A stretch of DNA of 18,238 bases. Origin: a virus. The stretch lies in the IMG/VR virus record IMGVR_UViG_3300045988_164576, positions 1 to 18,238 of that record; one strand, written 5' to 3'. Of the stretch, positions 1 through 12,321 are shown piece after piece; within the stretch, counting starts at the first letter, position 1, and each line of letters opens with the position of its first letter. A program made the translations under genes and the position numbers. The notes under the pieces are model-generated. The model did no database searches. It was not told the DNA's origin and saw nothing but the letters and a program-made list of their open reading frames with translations.

Positions 1-32
1 GTTGGTTATTCATGATACTTTAATTATACCAC

Positions 33-79
33 AAAAAAAGACTGCTGTCTTGCTTTTTGGCAAGATCGCAGCCTTTTTT
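33..79. terminator. Intrinsic-terminator-like hairpin in left host flank
   Basis: Imperfect hairpin with arms 40-53 and 60-73 (12 of 14 positions pair, including one G-T) and loop tttttg. It is flanked by A7 (33-39) and T6 (74-79), so it could act in either direction. The gene it would serve lies outside the window. Confidence 0.4.
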
Positions 80-126
80 CTTGGGAACTTTTTTTTACAG
101 CCCCTTTTTGTGTTAGAATATTTTGA

Positions 127-220
127 CAACTAAAAAACGGCTCTCCACAATAGCGGAAAGCCGTTTTTTACATATTGGTCGGAGTGACCGGATTTGAACC
201 GACGACCTCTACCACCCCAA
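127..220. repeat. Direct repeat DR1 (94 nt): displaced tRNA-Pro 3' 45 nt (176-220, minus sense) plus the downstream terminator; left att junction of element A
   Basis: 127-220 matches 7760-7853 except for the lengths of one A-run and one T-run. Positions 176-220 are the reverse complement of a tRNA 3' part running from the anticodon loop to CCA. The first 14 nt and last 17 nt are identical to 15646-15690 inside the intact tRNA-Pro. Confidence 0.85.
132..169 (-). terminator. Intrinsic terminator following the displaced tRNA-Pro 3' fragment (likely the native tRNA-Pro terminator)
   Basis: 9-bp stem 138-146 / 155-163, fully paired as minus-strand RNA with one G-U, loop 147-154. On the minus strand it is followed by a U-run (the A6 at 132-137). 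Confidence 0.6.
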
Positions 221-251
221 GCCCACGCACGAAGTGCGCAGGGCGTTTTTT
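221..251 (+). terminator. Intrinsic terminator just inside element A next to the att core
   Basis: GC-rich hairpin 221-244 (gccc/gggc and cgcac/gtgcg arms with a small internal loop, apical loop gaa), followed by T6 at 246-251. In a circularised element it would terminate the int/cargo transcript after attP. Confidence 0.45.
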
Positions 252-556
252 ATGTCCGAAGCATTAAATGTTGAGGGTGCAGGGCGCACAAAGCTGTGCT
301 GTGCGCCTTGCCTGCCCCCTGCCTGAGTGGCGGTCGCCAAAGTTTTGAACGCAGTGAAAAACTTTGTGTGACATCGCCACGCGCCCACCTCTGGGGTGCA
401 GGTCTGCACACTGTCGCAAGGCTGTGCGTTCCCTTTGTTCTGATTGTGTCATATCGGAGCTACAAACAAGCACCGCTTCTCAACTTTAATCCGTAGTGGT
501 CAGCACTTTGTATCCTCGCCGTTTAGGCGACGGCTTGAAGTGTGGATTGTGATTTG

Positions 557-790
557 TTATCCGTCTTTGTCTTGGTTTATCTTTATGATGATTTGCCCTA
601 GTTTCACAAGCGTTTCATTCTGCTGTTTCAATAGTTCCGTTTGCTCCTTGTTCCTCTTTGAAAGATCATTAACAGTTTTGCAAAGGTCAAGAAATTTGCA
701 GATTAGATAAATAATAAGCAAAAAGATTAACGCATCTATGATAATTCGTCCTATAAGTATATATGCTAAAGTCTTGTCTAAACCAAACAT
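557..790 (-). CDS. Small membrane protein (one N-terminal TM segment plus a charged coiled-coil-like tail), co-transcribed with the regulator; function unknown
   Basis: 77-aa ORF starting one nt after the regulator stop (taaATG). It has a hydrophobic stretch IIIDALIFLLIIYLI. It is a homolog of 11719-11955 in element B (KEQTELLKQQNETLV vs EKQTELLRQIQQNTV), in the same position relative to the regulator. Confidence 0.6.
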   Translation of the reverse strand: MFGLDKTLAYILIGRIIIDALIFLLIIYLICKFLDLCKTVNDLSKRNKEQTELLKQQNETLVKLGQIIIKINQDKDG

Positions 791-1138
791 TTATTTCTCC
801 TTAATTTTTACAACAGCGCTATTATTATTCTGCTGTGTTATGTTGTATTTGCTGTTACTGTCTGCTTTGTAGCCTATTCCCCTTTTGTCATTCGTCAGTC
901 CTGCTATATAATCAATACTCACTTTATAAAATTTTGCTAACTGTATAACTTTTTCAAATGGGATAGGATATTCACCTGTTTCCCACCTACTATATTGCTT
1001 TTGAGAAGTGTCAAGAATTTTCGCTATCATGCTTTGATTTAGTTCCATATCCTCTCTTAAATCTCTAAGTCTTTGATAATAATTAATAAAAATCACCTCA
1101 CTTATTTGTTTATTTATACAAATTATATCATAGTACAT
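791..1138 (-). CDS. XRE-family helix-turn-helix transcriptional regulator (CI/Cro-like repressor); start codon uncertain
   Basis: The stretch LRDLREDMELNQSMIAKILDTSQKQYSRWETGEYPIPFEKVIQLAKFYKVSIDYIAG is a typical HTH_3 pattern. The first ATG (1138) lies upstream of the best minus-strand -10 (1127-1132). The real start is therefore probably downstream, near the GAGGTG at 1094-1099. Confidence 0.8.
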   Translation of the reverse strand: MYYDIICINKQISEVIFINYYQRLRDLREDMELNQSMIAKILDTSQKQYSRWETGEYPIPFEKVIQLAKFYKVSIDYIAGLTNDKRGIGYKADSNSKYNITQQNNNSAVVKIKEK

Positions 1139-1205
1139 AATTGTTCTATTGACAATAGTACAAAAATGGGGTATATTATATATGTCGGTAGTACATTATT
1201 GTACT
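1127..1205. promoter_or_regulatory. Divergent face-to-face promoters with TAGTACA operator repeats (element A immunity switch)
   Basis: Plus strand: TTGACA 1149-1154, 17-nt spacer, TATATT 1172-1177. Minus strand: TTGTCA (1150-1155) , 17-nt spacer, TATGAT (1127-1132), so the two -35 boxes overlap. TAGTACA occurs at 1131-1137, 1156-1162 and 1189-1195. The last copy is part of the perfect palindrome AGTACAttatTGTACT at 1190-1205. Confidence 0.55.
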
Positions 1206-1219
1206 AAGTCCTCGAACAT

Positions 1220-1367
1220 AAAGATAACTACGATTAAATCGGTGAATGACGACAGCCTGAAACGGAAAAGTCTCGAATGGTAGGTAGTAGCCGTGAACGT
1301 GTGCATAATAGGTAGCACTCTATGAAACTTTCTTAGAGTTTTGGCACTAAAGAAGCCACCGGGTAAG
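1220..1367 (+). ncRNA. Conserved structured non-coding element, copy 1 (leader RNA or ssDNA-functional element; family not recognised)
   Basis: 148 nt with only 6 substitutions outside one hairpin loop relative to 12334-12474, although the flanking promoters and downstream genes differ. All three forward frames contain stops. The hairpin ACTCTA/TAGAGT (1317-1322 / 1334-1339) keeps its stem while the loop is 11 nt here and 4 nt in copy 2. Confidence 0.45.
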
Positions 1368-1445
1368 TATCTGTTTATCTTATGTTTATTATCACAAATT
1401 TAAAGGCACGAGGAAAAGCCGAAAAACCTCAGAAAGGAAAAAAAC

Positions 1446-1763
1446 ATGAAAACAACTATCGTAGGCTGGACAAAAAAGAAAGCATTTAACGGAGTTATAG
1501 AGGGCAAGCAGATAAACAGCCCTGAAAAGGTCGTCTTTCAGCTTCTGCAGGAAGTTGATAACCCCGACTGTCATGGAAAAATGGTCGATACACTGAAAAT
1601 ACCGACCGAAAATGCAATCAGACTTAACGGAAATTCTGAGGATTTCAATAAGCTTCTCGGCTGTGATGTAATGCTGAACTATCAGATTTTTAACGGACGT
1701 TCTCAGCTTGTTGATATCACCGTAATCAATGCAGACGGAACACTTCACCGCAACACAAAATAA
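1446..1763 (+). CDS. Hypothetical protein, possibly a gpV-like ssDNA-binding protein
   Basis: 105-aa ORF, the first gene of the rightward operon and immediately upstream of the coat-like gene, as in Ff phages. It shows weak similarity to the positionally equivalent 8086-8361 (e.g. VMLNY vs VNINY). The functional guess rests on position and size only. Confidence 0.5.
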   Translation: MKTTIVGWTKKKAFNGVIEGKQINSPEKVVFQLLQEVDNPDCHGKMVDTLKIPTENAIRLNGNSEDFNKLLGCDVMLNYQIFNGRSQLVDITVINADGTLHRNTK

Positions 1764-1817
1764 TTAGCGGTGAAACCGCTGTTATAAAAATTTAATAAGA
1801 AAGGAGTTTTGCTAATA

Positions 1818-1973
1818 ATGGAAGCTGTAACAACAATGCTTAGTAATGCCGTTACTGTTTTTGGTTCTTGTTGGGACGCTATGACAAGCAACGTACCTAT
1901 TGCAATTCTTGTAGGTCTGTCTCTTCTCGGCTCTGGTGCAGGACTTTTCGCAAAGTTCAGACACGCTGTATAA
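1818..1973 (+). CDS. Major coat protein-like (pVIII-like), 51 aa
   Basis: Not in the ORF track because it is under 60 aa. AAGGAG RBS at 1801-1806, ATG at 1818. Sequence MEAVTTMLSNAVTVFGSCWDAMTSNVPIAILVGLSLLGSGAGLFAKFRHAV has a central hydrophobic helix and a basic C-terminus. It shares the W-x-x-MTSN-P motif with 8379-8558. A terminator follows. Confidence 0.65.
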   Translation: MEAVTTMLSNAVTVFGSCWDAMTSNVPIAILVGLSLLGSGAGLFAKFRHAV

Positions 1974-1989
1974 GCAAAACCATTTACAT

Positions 1990-2026
1990 AAGCGGAGTAA
2001 TTCAAATTGCTCCGCTTAATTTTTTT
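1990..2026 (+). terminator. Intrinsic terminator after the coat-like gene
   Basis: Perfect 8-bp stem AAGCGGAG / CTCCGCTT (1990-1997 / 2010-2017) followed by a T-rich run ending at 2026. Confidence 0.6.
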
Positions 2027-2043
2027 GAAAGGAAGTTGATAAA

Positions 2044-3798
2044 TTGAGAAAAAAGATTAAGCAAGTGTTGTGTATGATCTCTGCACTTGTTGTGATGATA
2101 TGTTGTGCTGTTCCTGCATTCGCTTTAAAGCAGTCTGATGGTTCTGGTGGTATGAAACTTTTTATTGATATGGCGTTGAAAAAAATAAATTCTGACTTGG
2201 GTTTTACACCCGATTCATATATAGCCTTTTATTCGCCTAACCGCAAAGAGTACTCTCTTATATATCTTGTTCCTGACACTGTTCAAAAATTTTACCTTAA
2301 TTTGAGCGGCGGTGATATAGATACTTTGAATCAATCACAATTTTATATTTCAAATTATCATCGTCATTCTGATGACAACAAAACATATCGGTATGTTTAT
2401 CGCTATAATGATAAAAATCAACTTGTATTTAAAGCTCAATCTAGTCTTTTTGAATTTTCTGCCAATATAGGTGATATATCCAGTGTTAGTTGCGGTGTTG
2501 CTATGCACGTTGGTGTCGATTCTGATAATGGTGCTGATACCTATGTTTATTATCATAATGCTAAGGTTTATGATTGGTCTAACCCTGATAAAGATGTAAC
2601 CCCTACAGACCCCACCGTTGTTCCTGCTCCGTTTACTGTTACATATACACCTGAACTTTCATTGAATATGCAAAATAAAATTTACTATCCGTCAAAGGGT
2701 GGTGCTAATGCTGATGAAAATGGACTTGTAGCAGCTGAAAATAATAATATAAACCTTGATATAAAGCTTTCACCTGAGTTTTTAAAAACGTTCAATGAAA
2801 AAGACTTAGGAAAAGCTTACGGCTCTGGCACTTATGCCGTTTTATGTTGTCTTTCAAAAAATCTTCTTAACGCTGGTGATGATCTACAACGTTTCTTTGA
2901 TGAAGATGTTGTGCTTTATGCAATGAACCATGACGGCAATTACTACAAGGGTCAAGATGATGAAAAAATTAAGTCTGACGGCTCTTCTTCTGACGATTTG
3001 AATAGTAATGATACTGTTGATACTTTTGAGCCGTATTTAACATTATATCAAGGTCGAACGCCTATTTATACTATTCCTCGTGACGGCAAGATTACTGTAT
3101 CTTTTGATCTCACTTCTATTGATTATAAAACACATGGTCTTACTGATGATAGCAAGCTTTATGTTAATGTTATCGGTGTATTTGTAAAGAATAACGGTCA
3201 TGTTACTCCTCAGAATGGTGAAAAAACAGAAGATACAAATTCTTCAACGTGGCTCGGCTCGTATGCCTATCAAGAAGATTTTACAAACCTTAAGACGTGT
3301 GAGAAGATTGATGATTTTGTAAAGTCCGTTGATGAAGAAACAGGCAAGCCTGAAACATTCAAGGCTTATCGTGTTTATTCTGTTATTTCAGACCCTTTCT
3401 CTTATGAGAAGTTTCCTGATTATGTACCTAAAGTATATAAAGACAAGGACGGAAATACTTATAATCCCTCGACTACAAAGCTTAAAGACTTGTGTAATAT
3501 ACCGCCGTCAAAGGTCACTGACGTTGACCTTGCTAAGGGTTCAGATGGTGTTATAAATGATGGTTCATATATGCAACCTGATGATTATAACAAATATCTT
3601 GATAAGAAAAAAATTAATGCAAATTTCGGCTCTGTTGATTTCACGGATATAAAATCTATATTCAGTACAACGGGTACATATTGGGATTTTCTCACCGCCG
3701 CTCTTTCTTGTTTGCCGTCATGGTTTTATGCTGTGTTCTCTGCATGGTTTGTGCTGTTCTTAGCTATTGCGCTTATCAAGCTTGTTTTACCTACGTGA
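2044..3798 (+). CDS. pIII-like adsorption / minor coat protein (signal peptide plus C-terminal membrane anchor)
   Basis: TTG start 8 nt after AAAGGAAG. The N-terminus MRKKIKQVLCMISALVVMICCAVPAFA looks like a signal peptide. The C-terminus has a hydrophobic anchor (WFYAVFSAWFVLFLAIALIKLVL). It is a homolog of 8627-10177, with conserved ends and a divergent middle. Confidence 0.7.
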   Translation: MRKKIKQVLCMISALVVMICCAVPAFALKQSDGSGGMKLFIDMALKKINSDLGFTPDSYIAFYSPNRKEYSLIYLVPDTVQKFYLNLSGGDIDTLNQSQFYISNYHRHSDDNKTYRYVYRYNDKNQLVFKAQSSLFEFSANIGDISSVSCGVAMHVGVDSDNGADTYVYYHNAKVYDWSNPDKDVTPTDPTVVPAPFTVTYTPELSLNMQNKIYYPSKGGANADENGLVAAENNNINLDIKLSPEFLKTFNEKDLGKAYGSGTYAVLCCLSKNLLNAGDDLQRFFDEDVVLYAMNHDGNYYKGQDDEKIKSDGSSSDDLNSNDTVDTFEPYLTLYQGRTPIYTIPRDGKITVSFDLTSIDYKTHGLTDDSKLYVNVIGVFVKNNGHVTPQNGEKTEDTNSSTWLGSYAYQEDFTNLKTCEKIDDFVKSVDEETGKPETFKAYRVYSVISDPFSYEKFPDYVPKVYKDKDGNTYNPSTTKLKDLCNIPPSKVTDVDLAKGSDGVINDGSYMQPDDYNKYLDKKKINANFGSVDFTDIKSIFSTTGTYWDFLTAALSCLPSWFYAVFSAWFVLFLAIALIKLVLPT

Positions 3799-3806
3799 GG
3801 TGAATT

Positions 3807-3971
3807 ATGGATATAATACATGGTATTGAATTAGTTTTTAAATTCCTGATGAACTGTATGTCTTATACGTTTCCATTTGGCAAATACAGTTTTACTCTCG
3901 GTTCGGCTATTATAGGCGGTATGCTTTTATCAATCAGCTTGACTTTATTATATTTTATGCTTAGAAAGTAG
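3807..3971 (+). CDS. Small membrane protein (minor virion/assembly protein candidate), 54 aa
   Basis: GAGGTGA RBS, ATG at 3807. Sequence MDIIHGIELVFKFLMNCMSYTFPFGKYSFTLGSAIIGGMLLSISLTLLYFMLRK. It is a homolog of 10188-10355 (G-x-x-SFT-x-G-x-x-I-x-G motif) in the same position after the pIII-like gene. Confidence 0.6.
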   Translation: MDIIHGIELVFKFLMNCMSYTFPFGKYSFTLGSAIIGGMLLSISLTLLYFMLRK

Positions 3972-3978
3972 GTTTATT

Positions 3979-4053
3979 ATGTTAGTAAATATTGTTTTAT
4001 TTGTCCTCGTTGCTCTTATGGTCCTTTCTCTTGTATGGCTCGTTAGGAGGTAG
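3979..4053 (+). CDS. Possible 24-aa hydrophobic peptide (pVII/pIX-like size class)
   Basis: The sequence MLVNIVLFVLVALMVLSLVWLVRR is almost entirely hydrophobic. Its 3' end contains the AGGAGG RBS of the next gene. There is no clear RBS of its own and no equivalent at this position in element B. Confidence 0.3.
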   Translation: MLVNIVLFVLVALMVLSLVWLVRR

Positions 4054-4057
4054 AAAA

Positions 4058-4294
4058 ATGCTTAACTTGGTTTTGTTTATACTCGTTGTCTGCTTTATGG
4101 TTTGTACTATAAGCGGTGTTATAGGTTTCTTCACTGACCTTAGAAACTTTAAAGCTGAACATGAGTTCAGCGGAAACAGAAAACAGCTTATAGAGTTTCT
4201 TATGTTCGGTGAAGATGTTGAAATAAAAGCCGTTCCTGCGGTTGAAACTGATGATTGTGAGGTGAACGATAATGAAAGTACACATAGTGTTTGA
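4058..4294 (+). CDS. Small membrane protein with an N-terminal TM segment and acidic tail
   Basis: ATG at 4058 follows AGGAGG (4045-4050), so the ORF-track start at 3992 is probably too far upstream. It is a homolog of 10368-10613 (GVIGFFTDLRNFKAEHEFSGNRKQLIEFL vs GVLTFFIDIHAFKSEKDLSLPRKRLIEAL). Confidence 0.65.
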   Translation: MLNLVLFILVVCFMVCTISGVIGFFTDLRNFKAEHEFSGNRKQLIEFLMFGEDVEIKAVPAVETDDCEVNDNESTHSV

Positions 4295-4481
4295 TGAAAA
4301 TAACCCATTTTTTCAGCTTTTGAAGTCAATGGGCTGTGATCTCTCGCAAGAAGTCATGAATAGATATGACGCTTTGCTCCTCGGCATGGCATTTATATTC
4401 GCTGTGGTTATGCTTTGTATCTTCTGCAAGTTCTTTTATAATGTGATGATACGCATGACACGTTGTGCAAGTGCTGTGTAG
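4272..4481 (+). CDS. Small membrane protein, 69 aa
   Basis: GAGGTGA RBS upstream. It is a homolog of 10607-10813 (motifs QLLK-x-x-GCDL and YN-x-MIR) and has a central hydrophobic segment. Confidence 0.6.
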   Translation: MKVHIVFDENNPFFQLLKSMGCDLSQEVMNRYDALLLGMAFIFAVVMLCIFCKFFYNVMIRMTRCASAV

Positions 4482-4491
4482 GTGATTTGTT

Positions 4492-5286
4492 ATGATTATA
4501 TTTGACTACATAAAACAAATACCGCCCTTTATCACCTATGAGGTATATGACCACCTTTTTGGTGCATACTTCAATAATTCCGCTATCTTTCAAGGTTGGG
4601 GCATACATCTTTATACCGGTAAATTCGGAACAGGTAAAACCTCAACCCTTGCTCAGATAGCATATAACTATTGCGTGCGTTATCCTCAGTTGTCTATACT
4701 TACAAATATCAATCTTCAAAACTTCCCTGAGTGGACGAATATTTATAAGCTTAATTCCGCACAAGATATCCTGCACGCTCCTAAGAATTGTATAGTCGTA
4801 ATTGATGAGATAGGCACTATCTTCAATTCACGAGATTTCTCAGGTGGTAAAAGAGCCGTCTCTAAACCGCTTTTTCAGCACCTTTGTCAATGTAGAAAGC
4901 GCAAAATGATGATACTTGCTACAGTGCAACGATTTAATCTACTTGATAAACAGATACGAGATATAACGGCTACAGTGTCAACGTGCCGTGCTACATTCCG
5001 TCACCCTTATACACGTCTTATTAAGGTTAAAACCTATGATATAGACGAGTATGAAGCGTATACGGAGAATAAGTCATATATGCCGAAAAAGCTTTACAGC
5101 CGTTTGTATTTGCAGACTAATCAGAGTCGACAGCTATATGATACTTCTCAGCTTGTAGATAATATGCTTGATAAGGAGTACATCAGCGACACGGAAATAC
5201 TTGCCAATCGTGGAGTAGATGTCACAAGTGACATCATGCACGATAGAAAGACAAGCAGAAACCTGCGAAAAAGGCGTGGCGTATAG
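4492..5286 (+). CDS. Zot / pI-like P-loop morphogenesis ATPase (inovirus hallmark)
   Basis: Walker A is GKFGTGKTS and Walker B is IVVIDEIG. The pattern P-loop ... ILTNINL ... VIDE is typical of the Zot family. By eye it is roughly two-thirds identical to 10891-11688, making it the most conserved protein pair between the two elements. Confidence 0.75.
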   Translation: MIIFDYIKQIPPFITYEVYDHLFGAYFNNSAIFQGWGIHLYTGKFGTGKTSTLAQIAYNYCVRYPQLSILTNINLQNFPEWTNIYKLNSAQDILHAPKNCIVVIDEIGTIFNSRDFSGGKRAVSKPLFQHLCQCRKRKMMILATVQRFNLLDKQIRDITATVSTCRATFRHPYTRLIKVKTYDIDEYEAYTENKSYMPKKLYSRLYLQTNQSRQLYDTSQLVDNMLDKEYISDTEILANRGVDVTSDIMHDRKTSRNLRKRRGV

Positions 5287-5358
5287 CCACGAGCGACCGC
5301 AGGGGCGAGCGCTTGCGCCGCCCTGCGGTGCGTGTGGCTATTACTTGATATTAGCCAC
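5284..5358 (+). other. Putative plus-strand rolling-circle origin of element A: GC-rich long hairpin plus a second hairpin with a phiX174/pC194-type nick motif in its loop
   Basis: TAGCCAC occurs at 5284-5290 and 5352-5358, with its complement GTGGCTA at 5334-5340. An imperfect GC-rich hairpin spans 5285-5340. A 7-bp stem 5334-5340 / 5352-5358 has the loop ttACTTGATAT, so ACTTGATATTA spans 5343-5353. This matches 11 nt of the phiX174 origin CAACTTG|ATATTAATAAC and contains the CTTGATA core of pC194-family origins. Confidence 0.6.
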
Positions 5359-5394
5359 AAAAAGCACTCACCTAATAAATGGGAGTTGATATAA

Positions 5395-6396
5395 ATGTCC
5401 CTAAAAATGTCTTCTAAAGAGGTCAAGTGCAATACAAAGATAAAGGAATATCGTGACGGCAGTTACACTATAACACGTTCTGATCGACACATATTTAAAG
5501 ACCCTGCATTTGAGTATCACTGCAAGCATGAGCATAGTATTGACGAACGTTCAAGACAAGAGCAACTTAAAACGGCTCGTGAAAATTACATATGTTATTT
5601 TGAGTATGAGGACGAAAACGGAAACATAATGCTTGATATGCTTGATACTCGTAAGTTTAAAGATAAGCAGTCACAAAGCGGTGAAGTTCGTTCCGATAGT
5701 GTTCAAAGAGCAAAGCAAAGTATCTTTGATATAGTTTATCAAAATGATTGGAAATACTTCCTTACTATTACCTTTAATGGCGATAACCTTGACCGCACAA
5801 ACCCTAAAGAAGTCATAAAGCCTTTGAAAAAATGGCTTGAAAATGCAGTTAGTAGAAAAGGGCTTAAATATATCTTAGTTCCTGAGTATCACAAAAAAGG
5901 CGGTATACATTGCCACGCCCTTATAAACGATTGTGACTTTAAGTTCGTTGATAGTGGTACACGTCTTGTTAAGGGTCATGACAAGCCCCTTAAAATAGAT
6001 ACTATAAAGCGCCTGCATATATGTGATAAACTCGGCTGTGATATATCTGATTTGCCTGTTGTGTATAACGTGTCTGATTGGCGTTATGGTTTCTCAACCG
6101 CTATTCAGACTTACGGACAAATGTCTAATTTAGCTTTCTATGTCACTAAGTACATAACAAAGGACGTAAAGAAGATATTCGGCAAATTCTTCTGGAGTAG
6201 CAAGAACATTGTCCGCAAAACTAAAGAGATCTTTTGCAATTCAGACTTTAAAGACGATTTGCCGATAGTTTCTCCCCCTCGTGCTAATGTCTGTTATCAG
6301 TATGAAAGTAGTTTCACCTTTTCAAGTCAAGTCGAAAAGAACTGCAATGATATACTTCAATATCTTAAAGAGAATGGAAATGATGATGTCCTATGA
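5395..6396 (+). CDS. Rolling-circle replication initiator, phiX174 gpA-like HUH superfamily (two-tyrosine type)
   Basis: Motif 1 is FLTITF, motif 2 is GGIHCHALI (H-hydrophobic-H) and motif 3 is FYVTKYITKD (compare phiX174 gpA YVAKYVNK, with two Tyr three residues apart). GGGAG RBS at 5381-5385. Confidence 0.75.
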   Translation: MSLKMSSKEVKCNTKIKEYRDGSYTITRSDRHIFKDPAFEYHCKHEHSIDERSRQEQLKTARENYICYFEYEDENGNIMLDMLDTRKFKDKQSQSGEVRSDSVQRAKQSIFDIVYQNDWKYFLTITFNGDNLDRTNPKEVIKPLKKWLENAVSRKGLKYILVPEYHKKGGIHCHALINDCDFKFVDSGTRLVKGHDKPLKIDTIKRLHICDKLGCDISDLPVVYNVSDWRYGFSTAIQTYGQMSNLAFYVTKYITKDVKKIFGKFFWSSKNIVRKTKEIFCNSDFKDDLPIVSPPRANVCYQYESSFTFSSQVEKNCNDILQYLKENGNDDVL

Positions 6397-7283
6397 TTTT
6401 TAAAGAATGGTTTGAGATGTTCTATAACGCATACTGCGTTGATGTGATAGCCTATGATTGCTATAAGGACTATTACTATATAAATCAAAAACACTTCGGT
6501 TATATAGCCGATATGGAGCTTCTGAGCGTAAAGCCTATTGATATTCAGAATTGTCTTAAATCCACCCTATCTTACAGTAATGACCGCCAAAGACGTTCAT
6601 ATTTCTTACTTAAACGTGTATTCCGTGAAGCTATAGTTAATGGTTATTGTGACAAAAACCCTTGCGACTATATTAAACCTCCAAAACGTATAAAAAAAGA
6701 AGCTGAATATTTTAGCCCCGATAATCTCGTACATCTCTTTGATGATGATAGTAGAGTTTGCAGAATGTTTCAGCTTGACTTGTAGACAGGTCTCCGCCGT
6801 GGTGAACTTCTCGCTCTTAGTTGGGATAACATTGACCTTGATAACAGATATCTTAAAGTTTGTCAGACACTCGTACATACTTCATGCGGTGATAGGATTG
6901 TACAGACCACAAAATCTCGCCGTGATAGGCTTATCCCCTTGCATAGTAATGCAATAGCTATTCTTCATCAGATACGCTCTCAGGACGTTTCAGACGGCTT
7001 TCTGTTCGTTTCACCTATAACGCATACAGTAATATCTCTTAGACGTTATAACAGGCTCTATAGAACGTTCTATGAGCAACAAAAAACAAAGTATCCTGAT
7101 TTACAGTATCTCACCCCGCACAAGCTTAGACATAGCTATGCTACGTATCTTATTCAGTGCGGTGCAGATATTGAAACCCTTAGAGCATTGCTCGGACACG
7201 TTGATATAACAACTACCCAGCGTTATGTACATAGCAATTTTAATCAGATGTGCAAGGCTGTGAATAATCTCAAATTTGAATAA
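6393..7283 (+). pseudogene. Tyrosine integrase interrupted by a single in-frame TAG (6783-6785)
   Basis: ORFs 6393-6785 and 6939-7283 are in the same frame, and the frame is open throughout apart from the single TAG. Translation across it reads MFQLDL*TGLRRGELLALSWDNIDL, against MFRFECLTGLRREEILALRWENVDL in the intact integrase 14713-15621. The TAG aligns with a TTG Leu codon there. The catalytic HKLRHSY, LLGH and RYVH motifs are present downstream. Confidence 0.8.
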
Positions 7284-7305
7284 TAAAGGAGTTTTTAAAA
7301 TGAAA
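7248..7305 (+). repeat. 58-nt direct repeat, copy 1 (integrase 3' end, RBS and first codons of the downstream gene)
   Basis: atgtgcaaGgctgtgaataatctcaaatttgaataataaaggagTttttaaaatgaaa is repeated at 7507-7564 with 2 mismatches. Confidence 0.9.
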
Positions 7306-7506
7306 AGTAAATTTTATACGGAGCAAAAACATAAAGAAACTATGAATCTCGCTGATTTGCTCGAAGGTTCTATAAATCGTATGTGCGTTACTGCTGATAT
7401 GGATGAATTACGTCGACTTCTGATGAATTCAATGTGTAGCCTGTCTGAGTTGTATATCGTCAATCGTAAAAAACTCAAGGAGCGTTTTTCTCAAAATGAT
7501 TTCTGA
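7300..7506 (+). CDS. Hypothetical small protein (cargo gene 1), 68 aa
   Basis: ATG at 7300 follows AAAGGAG, so the ORF-track start at 7276 lies inside the integrase 3' end. No recognisable motifs. It is bracketed by the 58-nt direct repeats. Confidence 0.55.
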   Translation: MKSKFYTEQKHKETMNLADLLEGSINRMCVTADMDELRRLLMNSMCSLSELYIVNRKKLKERFSQNDF

Positions 7507-7564
7507 ATGTGCAAAGCTGTGAATAATCTCAAATTTGAATAATAAAGGAGCTTTTAAAATGAAA
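7507..7564 (+). repeat. 58-nt direct repeat, copy 2
   Basis: See 7248-7305. This copy contains an orphan duplicate of the last integrase codons (MCKAVNNLKFE stop), the RBS and ATGAAA. Confidence 0.9.
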
Positions 7565-7729
7565 GAGTTTAATTTTTGGTGTAAAGAAAATACTGACCAT
7601 GGCGAATGTGCCGATAAGGTATGCGATTATGATAACTGTTGTTGTTATGCCCACTGTGAGGAATGTATATTTTATCTTACAGATTCTCCTGCTTGTGAGA
7701 ATTGCTCTGTACCTTGTTATGATGATTAA
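7559..7729 (+). CDS. Cysteine-rich small protein (11 Cys in 56 aa), cargo gene 2
   Basis: ATG at 7559 follows AAAGGAG. Sequence MKEFNFWCKENTDHGECADKVCDYDNCCCYAHCEECIFYLTDSPACENCSVPCYDD has no signal peptide and an acidic character. Confidence 0.55.
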   Translation: MKEFNFWCKENTDHGECADKVCDYDNCCCYAHCEECIFYLTDSPACENCSVPCYDD

Positions 7730-7759
7730 TATTTACTTGTGAAAATCTTTAGCACTATT

Positions 7760-7853
7760 CAACTAAAAAAACGGCTCTCCACAATAGCGGAAAGCCGTTT
7801 TTACATATTGGTCGGAGTGACCGGATTTGAACCGACGACCTCTACCACCCCAA
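7760..7853. repeat. Direct repeat DR2 (94 nt): second displaced tRNA-Pro 3' 45 nt (7809-7853) plus a terminator copy; junction between elements A and B
   Basis: It matches 127-220 except for A7 vs A6 and T5 vs T6 runs. The terminator stem is 7772-7780 / 7789-7797. Confidence 0.85.
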
Positions 7854-7879
7854 ACACAAATAGAAAATTTTAGGATAAT

Positions 7880-7914
7880 AACCGCCGTATTTTGTTTAAA
7901 TATCGGCGGTTTTA
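7880..7914 (+). terminator. Terminator-like hairpin just inside element B next to the att core
   Basis: Stem ACCGCCG / CGGCGGT (7881-7887 / 7904-7910), extendable through AT pairs with one bulge, followed by tttatt. It is positionally equivalent to 221-251 in element A. Confidence 0.4.
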
Positions 7915-7976
7915 TTGTGCATAGAAATATTACAAAAAGTTTAGTTTGTTAGTGCGGTATTTTAACAAATTATACA

Positions 7977-8027
7977 TTGACAAGAAATATTACAAGTATT
8001 TACGCCATTTTCATAATGTTATATAAT
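7977..8027 (+). promoter_or_regulatory. Candidate promoter region for the element B morphogenesis operon
   Basis: TTGACA at 7977-7982 lacks a good -10 at 17 nt. Alternative -10 boxes are CATAAT (8012-8017) and TATAAT (8022-8027). The 13-nt direct repeat AGAAATATTACAA occurs at 7923-7935 and 7983-7995. An inverted repeat TGTAGTT/AACTACA lies at 8033-8051, just downstream. Confidence 0.35.
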
Positions 8028-8085
8028 ATAACTGTAGTTAAGAGAACTACAACAAATTATTAATTGATTTTGGAGGTATGACAAG

Positions 8086-8361
8086 ATGTATATTGTCAAA
8101 GGTTTTAAGAAAAACAGTGGAGTTATCAAGGAAACTGGCAGAAAGTGGGAAAACTACACACTCTTTTGTCTTAAGGAAAGTAAGGACGAGAGTGTGACAG
8201 GATATGAAACACATATTGCTAAAGTGTCAACAAAGGTCTTGCAGGAAACTTTCCCTAACTCTGCGGCTATCATTGATAGCCATGTAAATATTAATTATGG
8301 CGTTCGTACTTTTGGCGGTGCTGAAAAGCTTGTTGTCGAAAGTATAGACATAATCAAGTAA
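8086..8361 (+). CDS. Hypothetical protein, possibly a gpV-like ssDNA-binding protein
   Basis: 91-aa ORF with a GGAGG RBS, the first gene of the operon and upstream of the coat-like gene. It is a weak homolog of 1446-1763. Confidence 0.5.
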   Translation: MYIVKGFKKNSGVIKETGRKWENYTLFCLKESKDESVTGYETHIAKVSTKVLQETFPNSAAIIDSHVNINYGVRTFGGAEKLVVESIDIIK

Positions 8362-8378
8362 GAAAGGAGTTTAAGAGT

Positions 8379-8558
8379 ATGCCTATTACAGTTCTTACAG
8401 GTGAAACATCAACTATTACTTCTGGTGTTTCAACAATCACTGACCTTGTATCACAGGTTTGGACACTTATGACAAGCAATCCGCTTGTTATGGTCTTTGT
8501 AGGTGCATCACTCCTCGGTGTTGCAATCGGCGTTATCAGAAAGCTTACACATAAGTAA
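8379..8558 (+). CDS. Major coat protein-like (pVIII-like), 59 aa
   Basis: AAAGGAG RBS, ATG at 8379. Sequence MPITVLTGETSTITSGVSTITDLVSQVWTLMTSNPLVMVFVGASLLGVAIGVIRKLTHK has a hydrophobic helix, a basic C-terminus and the shared W-x-x-MTSN-P motif. A terminator follows. Confidence 0.65.
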   Translation: MPITVLTGETSTITSGVSTITDLVSQVWTLMTSNPLVMVFVGASLLGVAIGVIRKLTHK

Positions 8559-8575
8559 GCCGTATATCTCGCTTG

Positions 8576-8610
8576 TGCGGGGCGGTCAATCCGCTCCGCA
8601 TTTTTATTTT
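8576..8610 (+). terminator. Intrinsic terminator after the coat-like gene
   Basis: 9-bp GC-rich stem 8577-8585 / 8591-8599 (one G-U), loop tcaat, then tttttatttt. Confidence 0.65.
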
Positions 8611-8626
8611 AGAAAGGAGAAAAAAT

Positions 8627-10177
8627 ATGAAAACAAAACTTCGGCGGTTTGTGTCAATCCTCTCCGCCATGGTTCTTATGGTCTGCTGTGCCGTTCCTGC
8701 GTTTGCTGATGATATCGGCTCTTCTTACACTACATGGAATGATACCATTAAACAAAATGTTTTTTCGTGTATTCCTGAGAGTGATAAAACCGATTACTAT
8801 ACTGTTATTGCTGCCCCTTACGGCAGTGGTTTTACTTATACTATTATATTTTGTAAATCTAGTACTTCTGTGACTTATTTCGGCAGTAATCTTCATTGCT
8901 ATGTATCAAAGGCTGATTATAATGCGTTTGCGTGTGTCCTCGTTACCTCAGAAAATAAACCTCTCTATGATGATACAGCTACCGATTGGCGGTCTGAAAA
9001 TGGCGATTACTTCGACCATGAGCCTTATGATTATTCAAGCGGTCAAGCCAAGGTAATATATAGTAACGTTCCTGTTTTAAATTGGGAAGATAAGAAAACA
9101 CCTGCATGGAAAGACCCTAACGCCCCACCAGTTCCTTTTACTGTCGATTATTCCCCTGCTCTCTCTGAGGGCATGAGCCGCAAGGGAACTCTTGTCGCTC
9201 CTGGTGCAAGCAACAACGGACAGGAAATTGAAAGCAATGGTCTTAACGTCCGTGTCACACTAACGGACGAATTTTTAAAACTCCGTGACAGCTATGATGA
9301 ACTTAAAGATTATACATATGAATTTGTATGTTATATTACTACTTCCCCCCCTGAAAAGTCGTCTTATGAAGAAAGCGTTAAAAACGCTGTTTATACTTCA
9401 TTGGACTATGGCAAATATATGTATACTACAAGCGGCGTTGTTGATGATGTTACGGACGATAATAAAGAGCCTACAGAATGGATAAAGGCAGAGGGCATAA
9501 ATGCTGGCTATATAATTGGCAAGGGTGGCGAGGTTAAGAATGTTACTATCAATCTTGAAAACCTCGACAGCTCACAGTTTACCGCCGATACAAAGCTTTA
9601 TATCGTGGTATATGGTCGCTTGACTTCTCTTTCAGTGCCGACCCCTGATTACTTCGACCTCGACAATCAAGGTTATCTTTGCAATCAAGGTTCTTTGAAT
9701 ACAAAGCAGATTGTAACAGTAAATGCCGACCCCGAAACAGGCGAGGGAATAGATGTTGTAATGCCTGATTACTATTGTGTAACGTCAACGGCGTTCAATT
9801 ATAAGGACTATCCCGAATACAAGCCGAAAATATTCAAGAATGGTGCTGAAATGGATACAAACAAGCCGTTTACTGATTATCTTGATAAGAAGTTGACCCC
9901 TGATTATATGTATGATTATGATATGGATAAAAAGGGCGAAAGTGGTCTTGCTCCTGACGATTTCAAGAAATATGAGGAACAAAAAAATCTTGATAAAAAT
10001 TTCGGTTCGTTTGATTTTGGTTTGGATAGTATTAAATCAGTGTTTGACGGCTCGTCCGACTTCTTCAAGTTTTTAACTGCAAGTATAGGTATCTTGCCCA
10101 CAACGTTCTTAACTATCCTTATCGCTTTCTTTGTTGTCATGTTGGCAATTTGCGTTGTTAAATGGGTATTGAAGTAG
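8627..10177 (+). CDS. pIII-like adsorption / minor coat protein (signal peptide plus C-terminal anchor)
   Basis: ATG at 8627 follows AAAGGAG, whereas the ORF-track start at 8573 lies inside the terminator hairpin. The N-terminus is MKTKLRRFVSILSAMVLMVCCAVPAFA and the C-terminal anchor is LTILIAFFVVMLAICVVKWVL. Conserved segments shared with 2044-3798 include P-x-PFTV-x-Y-x-P and NFGS-x-DF. Confidence 0.7.
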   Translation: MKTKLRRFVSILSAMVLMVCCAVPAFADDIGSSYTTWNDTIKQNVFSCIPESDKTDYYTVIAAPYGSGFTYTIIFCKSSTSVTYFGSNLHCYVSKADYNAFACVLVTSENKPLYDDTATDWRSENGDYFDHEPYDYSSGQAKVIYSNVPVLNWEDKKTPAWKDPNAPPVPFTVDYSPALSEGMSRKGTLVAPGASNNGQEIESNGLNVRVTLTDEFLKLRDSYDELKDYTYEFVCYITTSPPEKSSYEESVKNAVYTSLDYGKYMYTTSGVVDDVTDDNKEPTEWIKAEGINAGYIIGKGGEVKNVTINLENLDSSQFTADTKLYIVVYGRLTSLSVPTPDYFDLDNQGYLCNQGSLNTKQIVTVNADPETGEGIDVVMPDYYCVTSTAFNYKDYPEYKPKIFKNGAEMDTNKPFTDYLDKKLTPDYMYDYDMDKKGESGLAPDDFKKYEEQKNLDKNFGSFDFGLDSIKSVFDGSSDFFKFLTASIGILPTTFLTILIAFFVVMLAICVVKWVLK

Positions 10178-10187
10178 GGGGTGCAAT

Positions 10188-10355
10188 ATGGATTGGTTTT
10201 CACTCATGAAGTCGCTTTTTGTTTCAATTCAACACTTAATGTGTTTGCGTATTCGTTTCGGTGAATTTAGTTTTACAGTAGGTGCAATGATTGTTGGATT
10301 GTTTGTTATATCCTGCTCCGTTGCTCTGCTAAAATATCTTTTTCACAATACATAA
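10188..10355 (+). CDS. Small membrane protein, 55 aa (homolog of 3807-3971)
   Basis: GGGGGTG RBS-like sequence, ATG at 10188. Sequence MDWFSLMKSLFVSIQHLMCLRIRFGEFSFTVGAMIVGLFVISCSVALLKYLFHNT. Confidence 0.6.
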   Translation: MDWFSLMKSLFVSIQHLMCLRIRFGEFSFTVGAMIVGLFVISCSVALLKYLFHNT

Positions 10356-10367
10356 GGAGTTGTTAAA

Positions 10368-10613
10368 ATGGTTGCAATATTAAAATTATTCGTCCTGTCA
10401 CTAATAGTCATTTTGGCTATTAGTGCGGTTCTTGGCGTGTTGACGTTCTTCATAGATATCCACGCTTTTAAATCTGAAAAAGACTTGTCGCTCCCTCGTA
10501 AACGGCTTATTGAAGCATTATACGAGGAACAGGAACTCAAAAAGAAAGCGGCTGAACAGCCGCAGGACACACCACAGAGCGACAAGCAAGAGCCTGAGAA
10601 AGAGGGGTGGTAA
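10368..10613 (+). CDS. Small membrane protein with an N-terminal TM segment and acidic/charged tail (homolog of 4058-4294)
   Basis: AAGGAG RBS. 81 aa, with a hydrophobic N-terminus and a charged C-terminus. Confidence 0.65.
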   Translation: MVAILKLFVLSLIVILAISAVLGVLTFFIDIHAFKSEKDLSLPRKRLIEALYEEQELKKKAAEQPQDTPQSDKQEPEKEGW

Positions 10614-10813
10614 ATGTGTTATATGATGTTCAAAACGCCTGCTATCAATTGCTAAAGCTTCTTGGCTGTGACCTCGCCGCCATTGATGTTATAAAGACGT
10701 GGAAACAGTTCGGCGTGTTGTGCTTGGAATTTGTCTTTGCCTGCATTATGCTGTTTCTGCTGTGGAAAATGCTATACAATGCTATGATACGATTTTTCAA
10801 TCCTCGAAGGTGA
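10607..10813 (+). CDS. Small membrane protein (homolog of 4272-4481); start uncertain (GTG at 10607 or 10616)
   Basis: It carries the motifs YQLLKLLGCDL and YNAMIR. The RBS-like AGAGGGG ends at 10607, which favours the GTG at 10616. Confidence 0.55.
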   Translation: MVNVLYDVQNACYQLLKLLGCDLAAIDVIKTWKQFGVLCLEFVFACIMLFLLWKMLYNAMIRFFNPRR

Positions 10814-10818
10814 TAGCC

Positions 10819-10890
10819 GTGTGGACTATTCTTGCTTTGTACATTATTTCTGTTATACTTTATTTTATTTTTAATTGGGGTGATAAATAA
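10819..10890 (+). CDS. Possible 23-aa hydrophobic peptide (pVII/pIX-like size class)
   Basis: GTG at 10819 lies 5 nt after GAAGGTGA. The sequence (M)WTILALYIISVILYFIFNWGDK has its stop abutting the Zot ATG (taaATG). A degenerate copy is present in the relic at 12713-12880. Confidence 0.35.
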   Translation: MWTILALYIISVILYFIFNWGDK

Positions 10891-11688
10891 ATGGTTCTTT
10901 TCGATTACTTCGTACGCCTGCCGTCCTTGGCGGCTTATGTAGCTTATGATAAGGCTACAAGCCTTTATTTCAACTGGTCGCAAATATTCAACGGTTGGGG
11001 TATACACCTTTTTGTCGGCAAGTTCGGTGCAGGCAAAACCTCGCTTATGGTCGCACAAGCCTATGATTTGTGTGTGAAATACCCTCAGCTACACATATTA
11101 ACTAATATCAATATCAAAAACTTTCCCGACTATACGGAGATACTCCCCTTGAACACTGCACAAGATATCCTCAACGCTCCTAAAAACACGCTTGTACTTA
11201 TTGACGAGATAGGCACAATATTCAATAGCCGTGACTTTTCGGGCGGTAAATGTGCCGTTCCTAAACCGCTATTTCAGCATTTGTGCCAATGCCGTAAACG
11301 GCGTATGATGATATATGCAACAGTACAACGCTTCAACTTGCTTGACAAACAAATTAGAGATATTACCGCAGACGTGACCGCTTGCCATACGCATTTCAAA
11401 CACCCATTTTGTCGTATACAGACAGGTTACACCTACGATATAGAGGAATACGAACTATACAGTGAAAACAAGGCGTATACGCCTGTTCAGATGTATAACC
11501 GCACATACTTACAGACAAATAAACGCCGTCAGCTCTATGATACATCACAGCTTGTCACGAATATGCTTTCAAAAGAGTATCTCAGTGATGAAGAAATACT
11601 CGCCAATCGTGAGGGAATAGAGCCTAACACACAGCCACTTGACCGAAAGCAGAAGAAATCTATTCGCAAGCGGAAAAATGCTTGGTAA
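10891..11688 (+). CDS. Zot / pI-like P-loop morphogenesis ATPase
   Basis: Walker A is GKFGAGKTS and Walker B is LVLIDEIG. It is colinear with 4492-5286 over its full length. Confidence 0.75.
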   Translation: MVLFDYFVRLPSLAAYVAYDKATSLYFNWSQIFNGWGIHLFVGKFGAGKTSLMVAQAYDLCVKYPQLHILTNINIKNFPDYTEILPLNTAQDILNAPKNTLVLIDEIGTIFNSRDFSGGKCAVPKPLFQHLCQCRKRRMMIYATVQRFNLLDKQIRDITADVTACHTHFKHPFCRIQTGYTYDIEEYELYSENKAYTPVQMYNRTYLQTNKRRQLYDTSQLVTNMLSKEYLSDEEILANREGIEPNTQPLDRKQKKSIRKRKNAW

Positions 11689-11691
11689 TGA

Positions 11692-11733
11692 AACAACTCG
11701 CAGTGGTTGCCGTGAGGCTCACTGCGAGTTGTT
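11692..11733. other. Perfect 14-bp-stem hairpin between convergent genes (terminator or ssDNA structural signal)
   Basis: AACAACTCGCAGTG (11692-11705) pairs perfectly with CACTGCGAGTTGTT (11720-11733), with a 14-nt loop. There is no clean U-tract on either strand. The 3' arm overlaps the end of the minus-strand ORF 11719-11955. Confidence 0.5.
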
Positions 11734-11955
11734 GTTGTCTTTGTTGTTAATCATCAGCAGATTGCTATTAACTGTGTTCTGCTGTATCTGTCTTAATAAT
11801 TCCGTTTGTTTCTCTTCTTCTCGTCTTATCGCTTTGCTGTTTCCTGCTATTTCAAATATAGCACATATCAACAGTATCACAATGACTATTTTCACGATAA
11901 GTATAACAACGCTTATTGACGTCATAGCCTCCAACGCTGTGAATATTTCTTCCAT
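11719..11955 (-). CDS. Small membrane protein co-transcribed with the regulator (homolog of 557-790)
   Basis: 78 aa with TM segment VVILIVKIVIVILLICAIF and a charged tail containing EKQTELLRQIQQNTV. The start lies 4 nt after the regulator stop. Confidence 0.6.
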   Translation of the reverse strand: MEEIFTALEAMTSISVVILIVKIVIVILLICAIFEIAGNSKAIRREEEKQTELLRQIQQNTVNSNLLMINNKDNNNSQ

Positions 11956-11959
11956 ACTC

Positions 11960-12202
11960 TCACCCCTCGTCCGTATGTGTTTTTATTACAATGTGGCTGT
12001 CCTCTGCTGATTTTATCTCATCAGTGATAACCTTTTTGAGATATCCCGCTTTTGACAAGCCTAACTCTTTTGCTCGGTCTTTTATCATTTGGTTAAAGCC
12101 CTTTGGTGCGTCAAACTGCACTTTCTCCAAATTTTCAGCGTCCCACTTTGCATTTGCTCGTTTTCGTGCGTCTGATACTGGCATTTCCTCACCTACTTTC
12201 AT
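11960..12202 (-). CDS. Ribbon-helix-helix (CopG/Arc-like) DNA-binding regulator; the start may be ATG 12184
   Basis: EKVQFDAPKGFNQMIKDRAKELGLSKAGYLKKVI fits a beta-strand, helix, helix RHH pattern. The second Met (12184) is preceded by AGGTGAGGA. The first ATG (12202) would sit at the predicted transcript 5' end, giving a leaderless mRNA. Confidence 0.6.
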   Translation of the reverse strand: MKVGEEMPVSDARKRANAKWDAENLEKVQFDAPKGFNQMIKDRAKELGLSKAGYLKKVITDEIKSAEDSHIVIKTHTDEG

Positions 12203-12209
12203 TAACTTA

Positions 12210-12321
12210 ATTATACAACACTTTCATAAAGCTGTCAATATGTACTGTATCGAGTACATAAAATATTAATATAAGCAATACACTTTGTTTACTTGACTTT
12301 GTACTCAATCGGGTGTATACT
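12210..12321. promoter_or_regulatory. Divergent promoters plus GTAC-core operators (element B immunity switch)
   Basis: Minus strand: TTGACA (12233-12238), 17-nt spacer, TATAAT (12210-12215). Plus strand: TTGACT 12293-12298, 17-nt spacer, TATACT 12316-12321. The palindrome ATGTACTgtatcgAGTACAT lies at 12240-12259. An extra TGTACT half-site lies at 12300-12305, inside the plus-promoter spacer. Confidence 0.6.

Follow-up and report, generated by a model that had tools for sequence, protein, structure and literature searches.

This report deals with a stretch of 18,238 nucleotides (nt) of viral DNA, positions 1 to 18,238 of the IMG/VR record IMGVR_UViG_3300045988_164576, hereafter called the window. 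Within the window, attention is given to the region that runs from the end of a Zot/pI-type morphogenesis gene through the next open reading frame (ORF) of an integrated element, named element A, which is followed in tandem by a second one, element B. Very probably, this region contains the replication start site and the gene for the initiator of a filamentous phage integrated in Ruminococcus-like gut bacteria. More specifically, we are confident that positions 5333-5370 are the plus-strand (double-strand) origin of this 7.6-kb phage, and that the ORF at 5395-6396, whose product is named Rep A, encodes its initiator. As read from the sequences, the assignment draws on the anatomy of the region, on the family of Rep A, on its invariant catalytic residues, and on the very strong co-occurrence and conservation of an origin motif with this type of Rep.

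Probable origin and initiator of element A

The sequence ACTTGATATTA is located at positions 5343-5353 of the plus strand, it is the sole copy in the window, and it is absent from element B. As claimed by an earlier reading of the same DNA, made without database searches and referred to here as the sequence-only reading, the motif sits in the loop of a hairpin (5333-5359; 5334-5358 in that reading) upstream of an initiator with a YVTKY string. That reading had also recognized 11 consecutive nt in common with the origin core of phiX174, CAACTTG|ATATTAATAACACTATAGACCAC, and this holds too: the phiX174 origin reads CAACTTGATATTAATAAC... and is annotated at A4306, therefore both the 11-nt identity and the G|A register are correct. 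Taking as reference the sequence recognized in phiX174-type systems (CAACTTG|ATA), ACTTGATA agrees with it at 8 of 10 positions, and the match extends to the 11-nt identity; the 30-bp tripartite origin of phiX174 is not reproduced, as the sequence 3' of the 11-mer differs, and the origin of element A is intergenic and associated with hairpins.

The hairpin is formed by the stem TGTGGCTA (5333-5340), which pairs with TAGCCACA (5352-5359), and by an inner TA/TA pair that leaves CTTGA (5344-5348) as the apical loop, so that G5347|A5348 falls within the loop. Superimposed on this fold there are two stretches of conserved sequence on the plus strand: the core TACTTGAT at 5342-5349, with the predicted nick at G5347/A5348 in the register given by the phiX174 annotation, and a right-hand box, ATTAGCCACAAA, at 5350-5361, defined by the consensus across origins and followed by TCA at 5368-5370. 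The motif lies 42 nt upstream of the 333-amino acid (aa) ORF of Rep A. Taken alone, the nick hairpin has a folding energy of -6.6 to -7.1 kcal/mol (DNA parameters), and the 11-mer is not significant, because 0.76 matches are expected at one mismatch or less and at least one is found in 102 of 200 shuffles; the longer family box, TACTTGATATTAGCCAC at 5342-5358, is rarer (0.07 expected at up to three mismatches). With an 11-mer that is unremarkable in one window and a weak hairpin, the case rests on the comparative evidence given in the next section.

The nick hairpin belongs to a larger structure, since the region 5270-5400 folds as three hairpins with a total of -33.4 kcal/mol (z = -5.4). Hairpin 1 (CGTGGC-GTATA-GCCACG, 5275-5291 on the plus strand, -7.0 kcal/mol) contains the stop codon of the upstream gene, and the GC-rich hairpin 2 (5293-5331, plus strand, -17.2 kcal/mol) is placed directly 5' of the nick region. 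A separate observation regards the left arm of the nick hairpin, which has two possible partners: its GTGGCTA (5334-5340) is flanked by two direct copies of TAGCCAC, one at 5352-5358 and the other, which overlaps the Zot stop codon, at 5284-5290. Pairing with the upstream copy closes a 57-nt GC-rich hairpin that ends at the nick motif, and it is conceivable, if rather doubtful, that the choice of partner switches the region from initiation to a different state. This alternative long hairpin could form, but the three-hairpin fold is more stable by 8 kcal/mol (-31.3 vs -23.3 kcal/mol), and the upstream TAGCCAC has no conservation outside the close relatives of element A.

Regarding the initiator, the ORF at 5395-6396 on the plus strand is intact, with an ATG start and GGGAG 9 nt upstream, and it carries the motifs listed in the sequence-only reading: FLTITF (residues 122-127, positions 5758-5775), HCHALI (residues 172-177, with HCH at 172-174, positions 5908-5916) and FYVTKYITKD (residues 248-257, with YVTKYITK at 6139-6162). 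Motif I, the His-hydrophobic-His motif II and the motif III tyrosine are thus present in the order typical of HUH endonucleases. The protein matches the Pfam family PF23343 (REP_ORF2-G2P) with 56.9 bits (cut-off 27.8), over positions 2-98 of the 99 in the profile; 375 homologues were found, and all the 120 listed carry this domain. In an alignment of 33 sequences, residues F122, T124, T126, H172, H174, Y249, K252, Y253 and K256 are invariant, and so is T255.

When the profile built from 33 homologues (38-84% identical to Rep A) is compared with gpA of phiX174, hhalign returns 89.7% (E 1.8e-6) and aligns motif I, PEY..HxH, WxYG(F/Y)S and FYVxKYxxK. gpA scores 209.9 bits on its own family, PF05840 (Phage_GPA), and also 33.3 bits on PF23343, which indicates that PF23343 covers a catalytic core common to both proteins. 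Rep A does not match PF05840 even at E<=10, nor has it any other meaningful match in Pfam, and membership in the gpA family has to be rejected on this basis. The proposal of the sequence-only reading, namely that a profile search would place Rep A with phage gpA and superfamily I initiators, stands for the catalytic core and fails for the family model. The invariant Y249/Y253 pair (YxxKY) and the homology to the gpA core agree with a phiX174-type ("superfamily I") protein; accordingly, Rep A is best described, from its sequence, as a two-tyrosine HUH initiator of phiX type in mechanism, which belongs to PF23343 and not to the gpA family proper.

Other comparisons regard plasmid proteins: the profile aligns with the Rep of the staphylococcal plasmid pAvY at 99.4% in hhalign, and with RepA of pC194 at 0.75%, with no match to Rep_1 (PF01446). 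The AlphaFold (AF2) model has a pLDDT of 78.4, and Foldseek finds 103 matches at E<=1e-3 in BFVD, including microvirus replication initiators and proteins with the ORF2/G2P domain. The same search against the PDB gives none at E<=1e-3, with Rep domains of geminiviruses and parvoviruses appearing only at E 0.1-0.4, and the profile has no sequence match among solved structures. As a further observation, residues 1-100 (window 5395-5700) form a distinct N-terminal domain with N13, K15, K17 and Y19 invariant and a predicted beta-hairpin (pLDDT ~90); this domain, which has no match in Pfam and no counterpart in gpA, is a candidate for origin binding.

These elements can be combined into a mechanism. 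After excision, the TACTTGAT core would become single-stranded in the supercoiled replicative form, and in this lineage this would happen when the 5333-5359 hairpin is extruded, with probable help from the adjacent GC-rich palindrome. Rep A would bind the conserved ATTAGCCACAAA box and, by means of its His-x-His metal site (H172, H174) and of either Y249 or Y253, would cut G5347|A5348 and become covalently joined to the 5' end. The free 3'-OH would prime leading-strand synthesis by the host polymerase and helicase, the regenerated origin would be cut by the second tyrosine, and the first phosphotyrosine would be resolved by ligation, with release of a circular plus strand to be packaged via the Zot/pI machinery. 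Within this scheme, we infer the exact position of the nick, the two-tyrosine flip-flop, the right-hand box as binding site and the role of the GC-rich hairpin; as for the flip-flop, two juxtaposed tyrosines were described for phiX174 gpA by van Mansfeld et al. 1986, as cited in PMC5714925.

Conservation of the predicted origin box and of its structural context

The relation between motif and Rep was examined in both directions. In the forward test, in which loci were fetched through the Rep, either the exact 11-mer or TACTYGAY precedes rep at a short distance, in lineages with Reps that have only 25-54% identity to Rep A; these loci come from Ruminococcus, Oscillospiraceae, other Clostridia, and complete circular inovirus genomes from viromes. 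The sequence-only reading had expected the loop motif to be conserved among homologous elements, and what about 35 lineages have in common shortly before rep is the linear box TACTTGAT(A)TTAGCCACAAA, whereas the bracketing hairpin is limited to 11 of 31 origins. In a set of 35 non-redundant lineages, the 300 nt upstream of rep contain 24 coding-strand copies of TACTTGAT, compared to 0.43 copies expected from the remaining sequence of the same loci (Poisson P ~1e-33), and four loci that seemed devoid of the box do have the motif once poor estimates of the gene start are corrected. The motif is always on the coding (packaged) strand and, in most lineages, 42-50 nt upstream of the rep start, while in pAvY and some other loci it is found 100-200 nt from, or inside, the annotated rep ORF. 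The alignment of 31 distinct origins on the motif yields the consensus TACTTGATAnTAGCCACAAA......TCA, whose information content is almost maximal within the box and close to zero in the flanks.

In the reverse test, the exact 17-mer TACTTGATATTAGCCAC was found in 59 IMG/VR stretches, in 53 of which it is followed by a Rep of the A family within tens of nt, while two are truncated. An additional stretch, L116 (1325-3279), has the 17-mer ~130 nt upstream of a divergent PF23343 Rep (72.5 bits, with WITLTY, HAHLIL and YLTAYLG as motifs) and then an integrase, bringing the untruncated copies followed by a PF23343 Rep to 54 of 57. The profile hidden Markov model of the A family detects the L116 protein only at E 0.024; judging from these sequences, the origin box of L116 is better conserved than its initiator. 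The three stretches with no Rep nearby are L102 and L135, which share the same sequence, and L122. Since the 17-mer is followed by Reps of the same family, and element B lacks the box despite having a Zot 64% identical to that of A, the box tracks the Rep family and not the Zot family.

Two observations concern copies of the origin or of the Rep that depart from this arrangement. At position ~1985 of L102, and likewise in L135, the 17-mer is flanked by CACACTTAACGTGCGAG repeats and has an IS200-like transposase ORF near it, with no Rep of the same family in the locus; this copy might be an orphan origin, or the match might be due to chance. Conversely, the protein P0004 from one metagenomic contig (449 aa, 94% identical to Rep A over 79% of its length) has Zot and Rep domains joined, which implies either that the intergenic origin was deleted or that the fusion is an artefact of gene calling.

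As for the structures around the box, a perfect inverted repeat of at least 6 bp brackets the motif in 11 of the 31 distinct origins, compared to an expectation of 0.94 with a shuffled left flank (at most 4 in any of 200 shuffles). The stems differ by lineage, being TGTGGCTA/TAGCCACA, GCGGTTATA/TATAACCGC, GTGGCACTA/TAGTGCCAC or AAGTGTCCTT/AAGGACACTT, and the smallest loops, CTTGAT, CTCGAT and CTTGAC, correspond to exposed bases at the G|A site of phiX and pC194. The excess over expectation, the variety of the stems and the minimal loops all suggest that the bracketing hairpin is recurrent and under selection, and that it exposes the presumed G|A site. The other 20 lineages have no bracketing hairpin, and their right arm persists as conserved sequence without a partner; the right-hand box is therefore conserved with or without a complementary left arm, which points to an element for protein recognition, and ATTAGCCACAAA is predicted to be, probably, the recognition sequence of the Rep.

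A commoner structural feature is a long GC-rich hairpin whose end coincides with the TA of TACTTGAT or is close to it. In the 70 nt upstream, the median GC content is 63% and the median folding energy -38.6 kcal/mol (z -4.8), with z below -2 in 23 of 28 lineages, while the 70 nt downstream have a GC content of 34% and z -1. This upstream hairpin is conserved in structure and not in sequence, and among the close relatives of element A the changes that fall within it preserve the pairing. In element A it corresponds to hairpin 2, and possible roles for it are that of a cruciform aid, a minus-strand origin or a packaging element.

Alternative explanations and comparison with known systems

Several points weigh against the proposal that 5333-5370 and Rep A form a phiX-like origin and initiator. 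By itself, the 11-mer is statistically ordinary within one window, and the nick hairpin is weak (about -7 kcal/mol) and absent in 20 of the 31 lineages. Beyond ACTTGAT, the identity with phiX (ATTA) appears in only about half of the lineages, so that part of the 11-nt match looks lineage-specific; in addition, the phiX spacer and "key" are not conserved, and phiX has no hairpin and has its origin inside gene A. On the protein side, as seen above, Rep A is not matched by the gpA family model PF05840, nor does it match any solved structure significantly. In the window, element A has a broken integrase, and this copy may be unable to excise and replicate. The predicted cleavage and replication rest on sequence for A and its close relatives. 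Lastly, the motif is in the leader of rep and TTGATA-N17-TCAnnT is loosely promoter-like, which makes a regulatory role possible.

This last point leads to the alternative that survives best, although we regard it as very unlikely: the conserved box would be mainly a transcriptional signal for rep, either a promoter with TTGATA as -35 or an operator through which Rep regulates its own synthesis, with the nick actually made elsewhere. The distance of 42-50 nt from the rep start in most lineages and a family consensus readable as TTGATA-N17-TCAnnT speak for it, and in rolling-circle replicons the origin and the rep promoter frequently overlap. However, a sigma-70 scan finds no promoter-like site in 5150-5450, the putative -10 has a C at the near-invariant A2 position, and the location of the motif 100-200 nt from, or inside, the annotated rep ORF of pAvY and some other loci does not suit a promoter. 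Moreover, a promoter leaves unexplained the invariant TAC 5' of TTGAT, the covarying stems that bracket the motif in 11 lineages, and the identity to the mapped nick sequence of phiX.

Even less probable, in our judgment, is that the hairpin cluster 5275-5359 is a terminator, a packaging signal or a minus-strand origin of the upstream morphogenesis operon, with a coincidental similarity to phiX. The cluster comes directly after the Zot stop codon, its region folds far better than shuffled sequences (z = -5.4), GC-rich hairpins at this position are conserved in structure and not in sequence, and in Ff phages the packaging signal and the minus-strand origin adjoin the plus-strand origin. These features suit hairpins 1 and 2 but not the nick box, which is conserved in sequence rather than in structure, has no T-tract after it on the plus strand, and follows the Rep family and not the Zot, as indicated by its absence from B and by the 54 of 57 informative 17-mers tied to PF23343 Reps. 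A terminator function of the nick hairpin was also considered and rejected, the only terminator-like match being hairpin 1 on the minus strand, where no gene ends. The least probable alternative is that Rep A and its origin are a decaying, inactive relic, as the split integrase and a 259-bp duplication missing in the relatives might suggest, but the Rep ORF is uninterrupted, many independent metagenomic copies match it with 98-99% identity (cluster sizes 583 and 853), all the catalytic residues are retained, and the origin region 5284-5363 shows no change among relatives that diverge in other places, being the same in many independent assemblies.

Returning to the assignment of 5333-5370 and Rep A as origin and initiator, the system can be compared with those already known. 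The likeness to phiX174 regards both components, because gpA is an HUH initiator with FxTLT, PEY..HxH, WxYG(F/Y)S and a two-tyrosine FYVxKYxxK helix, and the two origins have ACTTGATATTA in common, including the mapped G|A nick of phiX. In contrast, gpA is 513 aa long compared with the 333 aa of Rep A, whose N-terminal domain is unrelated and conserved; the phiX origin is unstructured and lies inside the rep gene, whereas that of A is intergenic and in or next to hairpins; and the virion module of A is filamentous (Zot/pI), not icosahedral. With pC194/pUB110 (Rep_1, PF01446), element A shares the Gram-positive host range and the nick core CTTGATA upstream of rep, the nick region of pC194 being TCTTATCTTGATAATAAGGG (PMC10378824); the pC194 RepA differs in having a single motif III tyrosine (EMAKYSGK) in place of the YxxKY of Rep A.

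Parallels are also found among the gut inoviruses named "bajarodino virus" and "Dulem virus" and the prophages of Ruminococcus and Oscillospiraceae, which have Reps of the same family with 25-54% identity. In Dulem virus 66 and bajarodino virus 15, the rep gene comes right after Zot, as in element A, while it is elsewhere in bajarodino viruses 76 and 1. All these bajarodino and Dulem genomes have a TACTYGAY box upstream of rep, with TACTCGATATTAACCAC and TACTTGACnATAG among the variants, and their records annotate a "replication initiator protein" but no origin. The 1.4-kb cryptic plasmid pAvY of S. aureus (PMC6491766) encodes essentially only a Rep homologous to Rep A and no virion genes; it has TACTTGAC in the loop of a hairpin with an 11-bp stem. 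This hairpin (AAGTTGGTCGT-cTACTTGACAt-ACGACCAACTT, L091 363-395) is inside the annotated rep ORF, a placement that resembles that of phiX174. Ff phages (M13/f1/fd) have an initiator with the same role in a filamentous phage: their gene II protein nicks the plus strand in a hairpin-rich intergenic region next to the packaging and minus-strand signals, although it belongs to a different Pfam family (Phage_CRI, PF05144) and uses a different nick sequence.

Concerning novelty, the Rep family, the nick core and the exchange of modules are all known, this type of replication system has been known since phiX174, and the understanding of rolling-circle replication or of inovirus module exchange does not change. 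In the literature searched, nothing relevant was found on CTTGATA with filamentous phages, on "bajarodino" or on the 11-mer itself; within these limits, the origin box of the gut-Clostridia inovirus clade, together with its extension to pAvY-type plasmids and divergent PF23343 Reps, appears to be undescribed. The gain is a concrete origin, with a predicted nick at G5347|A5348, and a putative Rep-binding box for a large clade of uncultivated filamentous phages of human and animal gut Clostridia, for whose relatives the public records annotate the rep gene and no origin. In addition, the CTTGAT nick core of phiX174 and pC194 is extended to the PF23343-type Reps of inoviruses and tiny plasmids, and the unit made of rep and origin could serve as a minimal replicon for Ruminococcus-type hosts, which are hard to manipulate genetically.

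The 17-mer beside the barely detected Rep of L116, the close variants in 1.4-kb staphylococcal plasmids and the core in common with phiX174 also suggest a broader but rather doubtful idea, namely that the TACTTGAT(A)TTAGCCAC box is a portable origin, conserved more deeply than the initiators that use it. If the Reps of co-resident elements cross-recognise their origins, then inoviruses, cryptic plasmids and Rep-less orphan copies, such as those in L102/L135, could mobilise or parasitise one another.

The two tandem prophages and their replication modules

The window holds a 61-nt direct repeat in three copies, each corresponding to the 3' end of a tRNA-Pro: the left att repeat of element A (165-225), the one between A and B (7798-7858), and a third (15635-15695) inside the true tRNA-Pro gene at 15646-15722 on the minus strand. 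These copies delimit two elements integrated in tandem at one tRNA-Pro att site, A at ~226-7797, 7.6 kb between its att repeats, and B at ~7859-15634. Each of them encodes a Zot/pI ATPase, a large protein whose N-terminus resembles a signal peptide and whose C-terminus is hydrophobic, several membrane-protein ORFs of 50-100 aa, and a tyrosine integrase. The Zot/pI-type ATPase of A, an inovirus hallmark (4492-5286, plus strand), scores 34 bits on Pfam Zot PF05707 and matches PHROG 1675, "morphogenesis (protein I of M13)"; that of B is found at 10891-11688 with the same two types of matches (Pfam Zot and PHROG "protein I of M13").

Based on their gene content, A and B are classified as filamentous (inovirus-like) prophages. 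The features expected for Tubulavirales or inovirus-like phages are all present, namely Zot/pI, coat-protein candidates (transmembrane ORFs of 54 and 69 aa), an adsorption protein (584 aa, hydrophobic at both termini), a genome of 5-10 kb and co-oriented genes. A microvirus was considered and discarded, given that the structural module consists of Zot/pI and small membrane proteins, and Pfam gives no capsid match; in NCBIfam, none of Rep A, Rep B, Zot and the 584-aa protein falls into a family. The Zot proteins of A and B are 64% identical and the adsorption proteins 29%, and the two elements are siblings in the morphogenesis module only. Relatives are carried in the genomes of Hominimerdicola aceti and Ruminococcus spp., as well as of further Oscillospiraceae and Clostridia, and the nearest phages in GenBank are the uncultivated "bajarodino" and "Dulem" inoviruses from rodent and lemur faeces.

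Element B relies on another replication system, which from its sequence is a circovirus-type (CRESS-type) Rep and origin. The origin has a 10-bp stem (13032-13041 / 13053-13062) with TAGTATTAC (13044-13052) in the loop, followed by GTCACA repeats, and Rep B (13156-14355, 399 aa) combines an HUH nuclease with an S3H helicase; its family profile matches the PCV2 Rep 7lar with E 2e-18, and RNA_helicase and Viral_Rep are detected in 23 and 9 of the 27 members of the family, respectively. The sequence-only reading had described A and B as using two unrelated solutions for rolling-circle replication, the phiX and the circovirus type: the two types are both there, but Rep A and Rep B, even with no detectable similarity to each other, are both HUH endonucleases and hence not unrelated. 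As for the replication-module swapping that it had proposed, the two elements have different Reps beside related Zots, but the regulatory block lies between Zot and rep in B and beyond the att site in A, so that the swap is not a simple in-place replacement. Nor is such exchange new: it is established among inoviruses (PMC6668415), for which Reps of the RCR-plus-S3H kind (iPF_00203, PMC6813254) and of CRESS type (ctbe30 and ctbc27, PMC7000223) have been described.

CTXphi makes phage DNA directly from a tandem array. Since the window has a single A-type origin and B uses another system, such production is not expected here, and excision would be needed. The tyrosine integrase of A (6393-7283, plus strand) is disrupted, with the N-terminal and catalytic halves recognized by Pfam on separate ORFs, 6393-6785 (130 aa) and 6939-7283 (114 aa), while the relative L001 has one intact ORF of 296 aa; another recombinase may have to serve this copy of A. 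Despite the tRNA-Pro att site common to both elements, the integrase of B and the intact A-type one share only 33% identity. Among the IMG/VR contigs checked for a circular episomal form of A, those of A type have no terminal repeats, and only L080, from the group with 42% identical Reps, has one.

Some minor observations complete the picture of the window. At the end of the integrase gene of A there is a tandem duplication of 259 bp, marked by 58-nt repeat ends (7248-7305 and 7507-7564) that are 97% identical; the relatives of A have a single copy. A non-coding block of ~160 nt (1216-1383 in A, 12330-12490 in B) is ~93% identical in the two elements, far above the level of their proteins, has a different position relative to Zot and rep, and occurs in only three of the A-type loci fetched. 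As a candidate for a minus-strand origin or an RNA, it has no match in Rfam and a fold z of 0; it may be an exchanged regulatory or immunity region. The Rfam scan detects no known RNA family in 5200-5450, and in the whole window only two tRNAs and one match to "Staphylococcus sRNA 774" (15781-15894, 54.3 bits with a threshold of 48), which overlaps the start of the tRNA-Met in the host DNA just outside B. Finally, the H. aceti contig NZ_JAOQJZ010000005.1 (L001, L006) carries an A-type Rep (93% identical) and, ~14 kb apart on the opposite strand, a second Rep of the same family (43%), whose origin forms a 15-bp stem that contains compensatory changes; it seems common for one host to carry several filamentous prophages.

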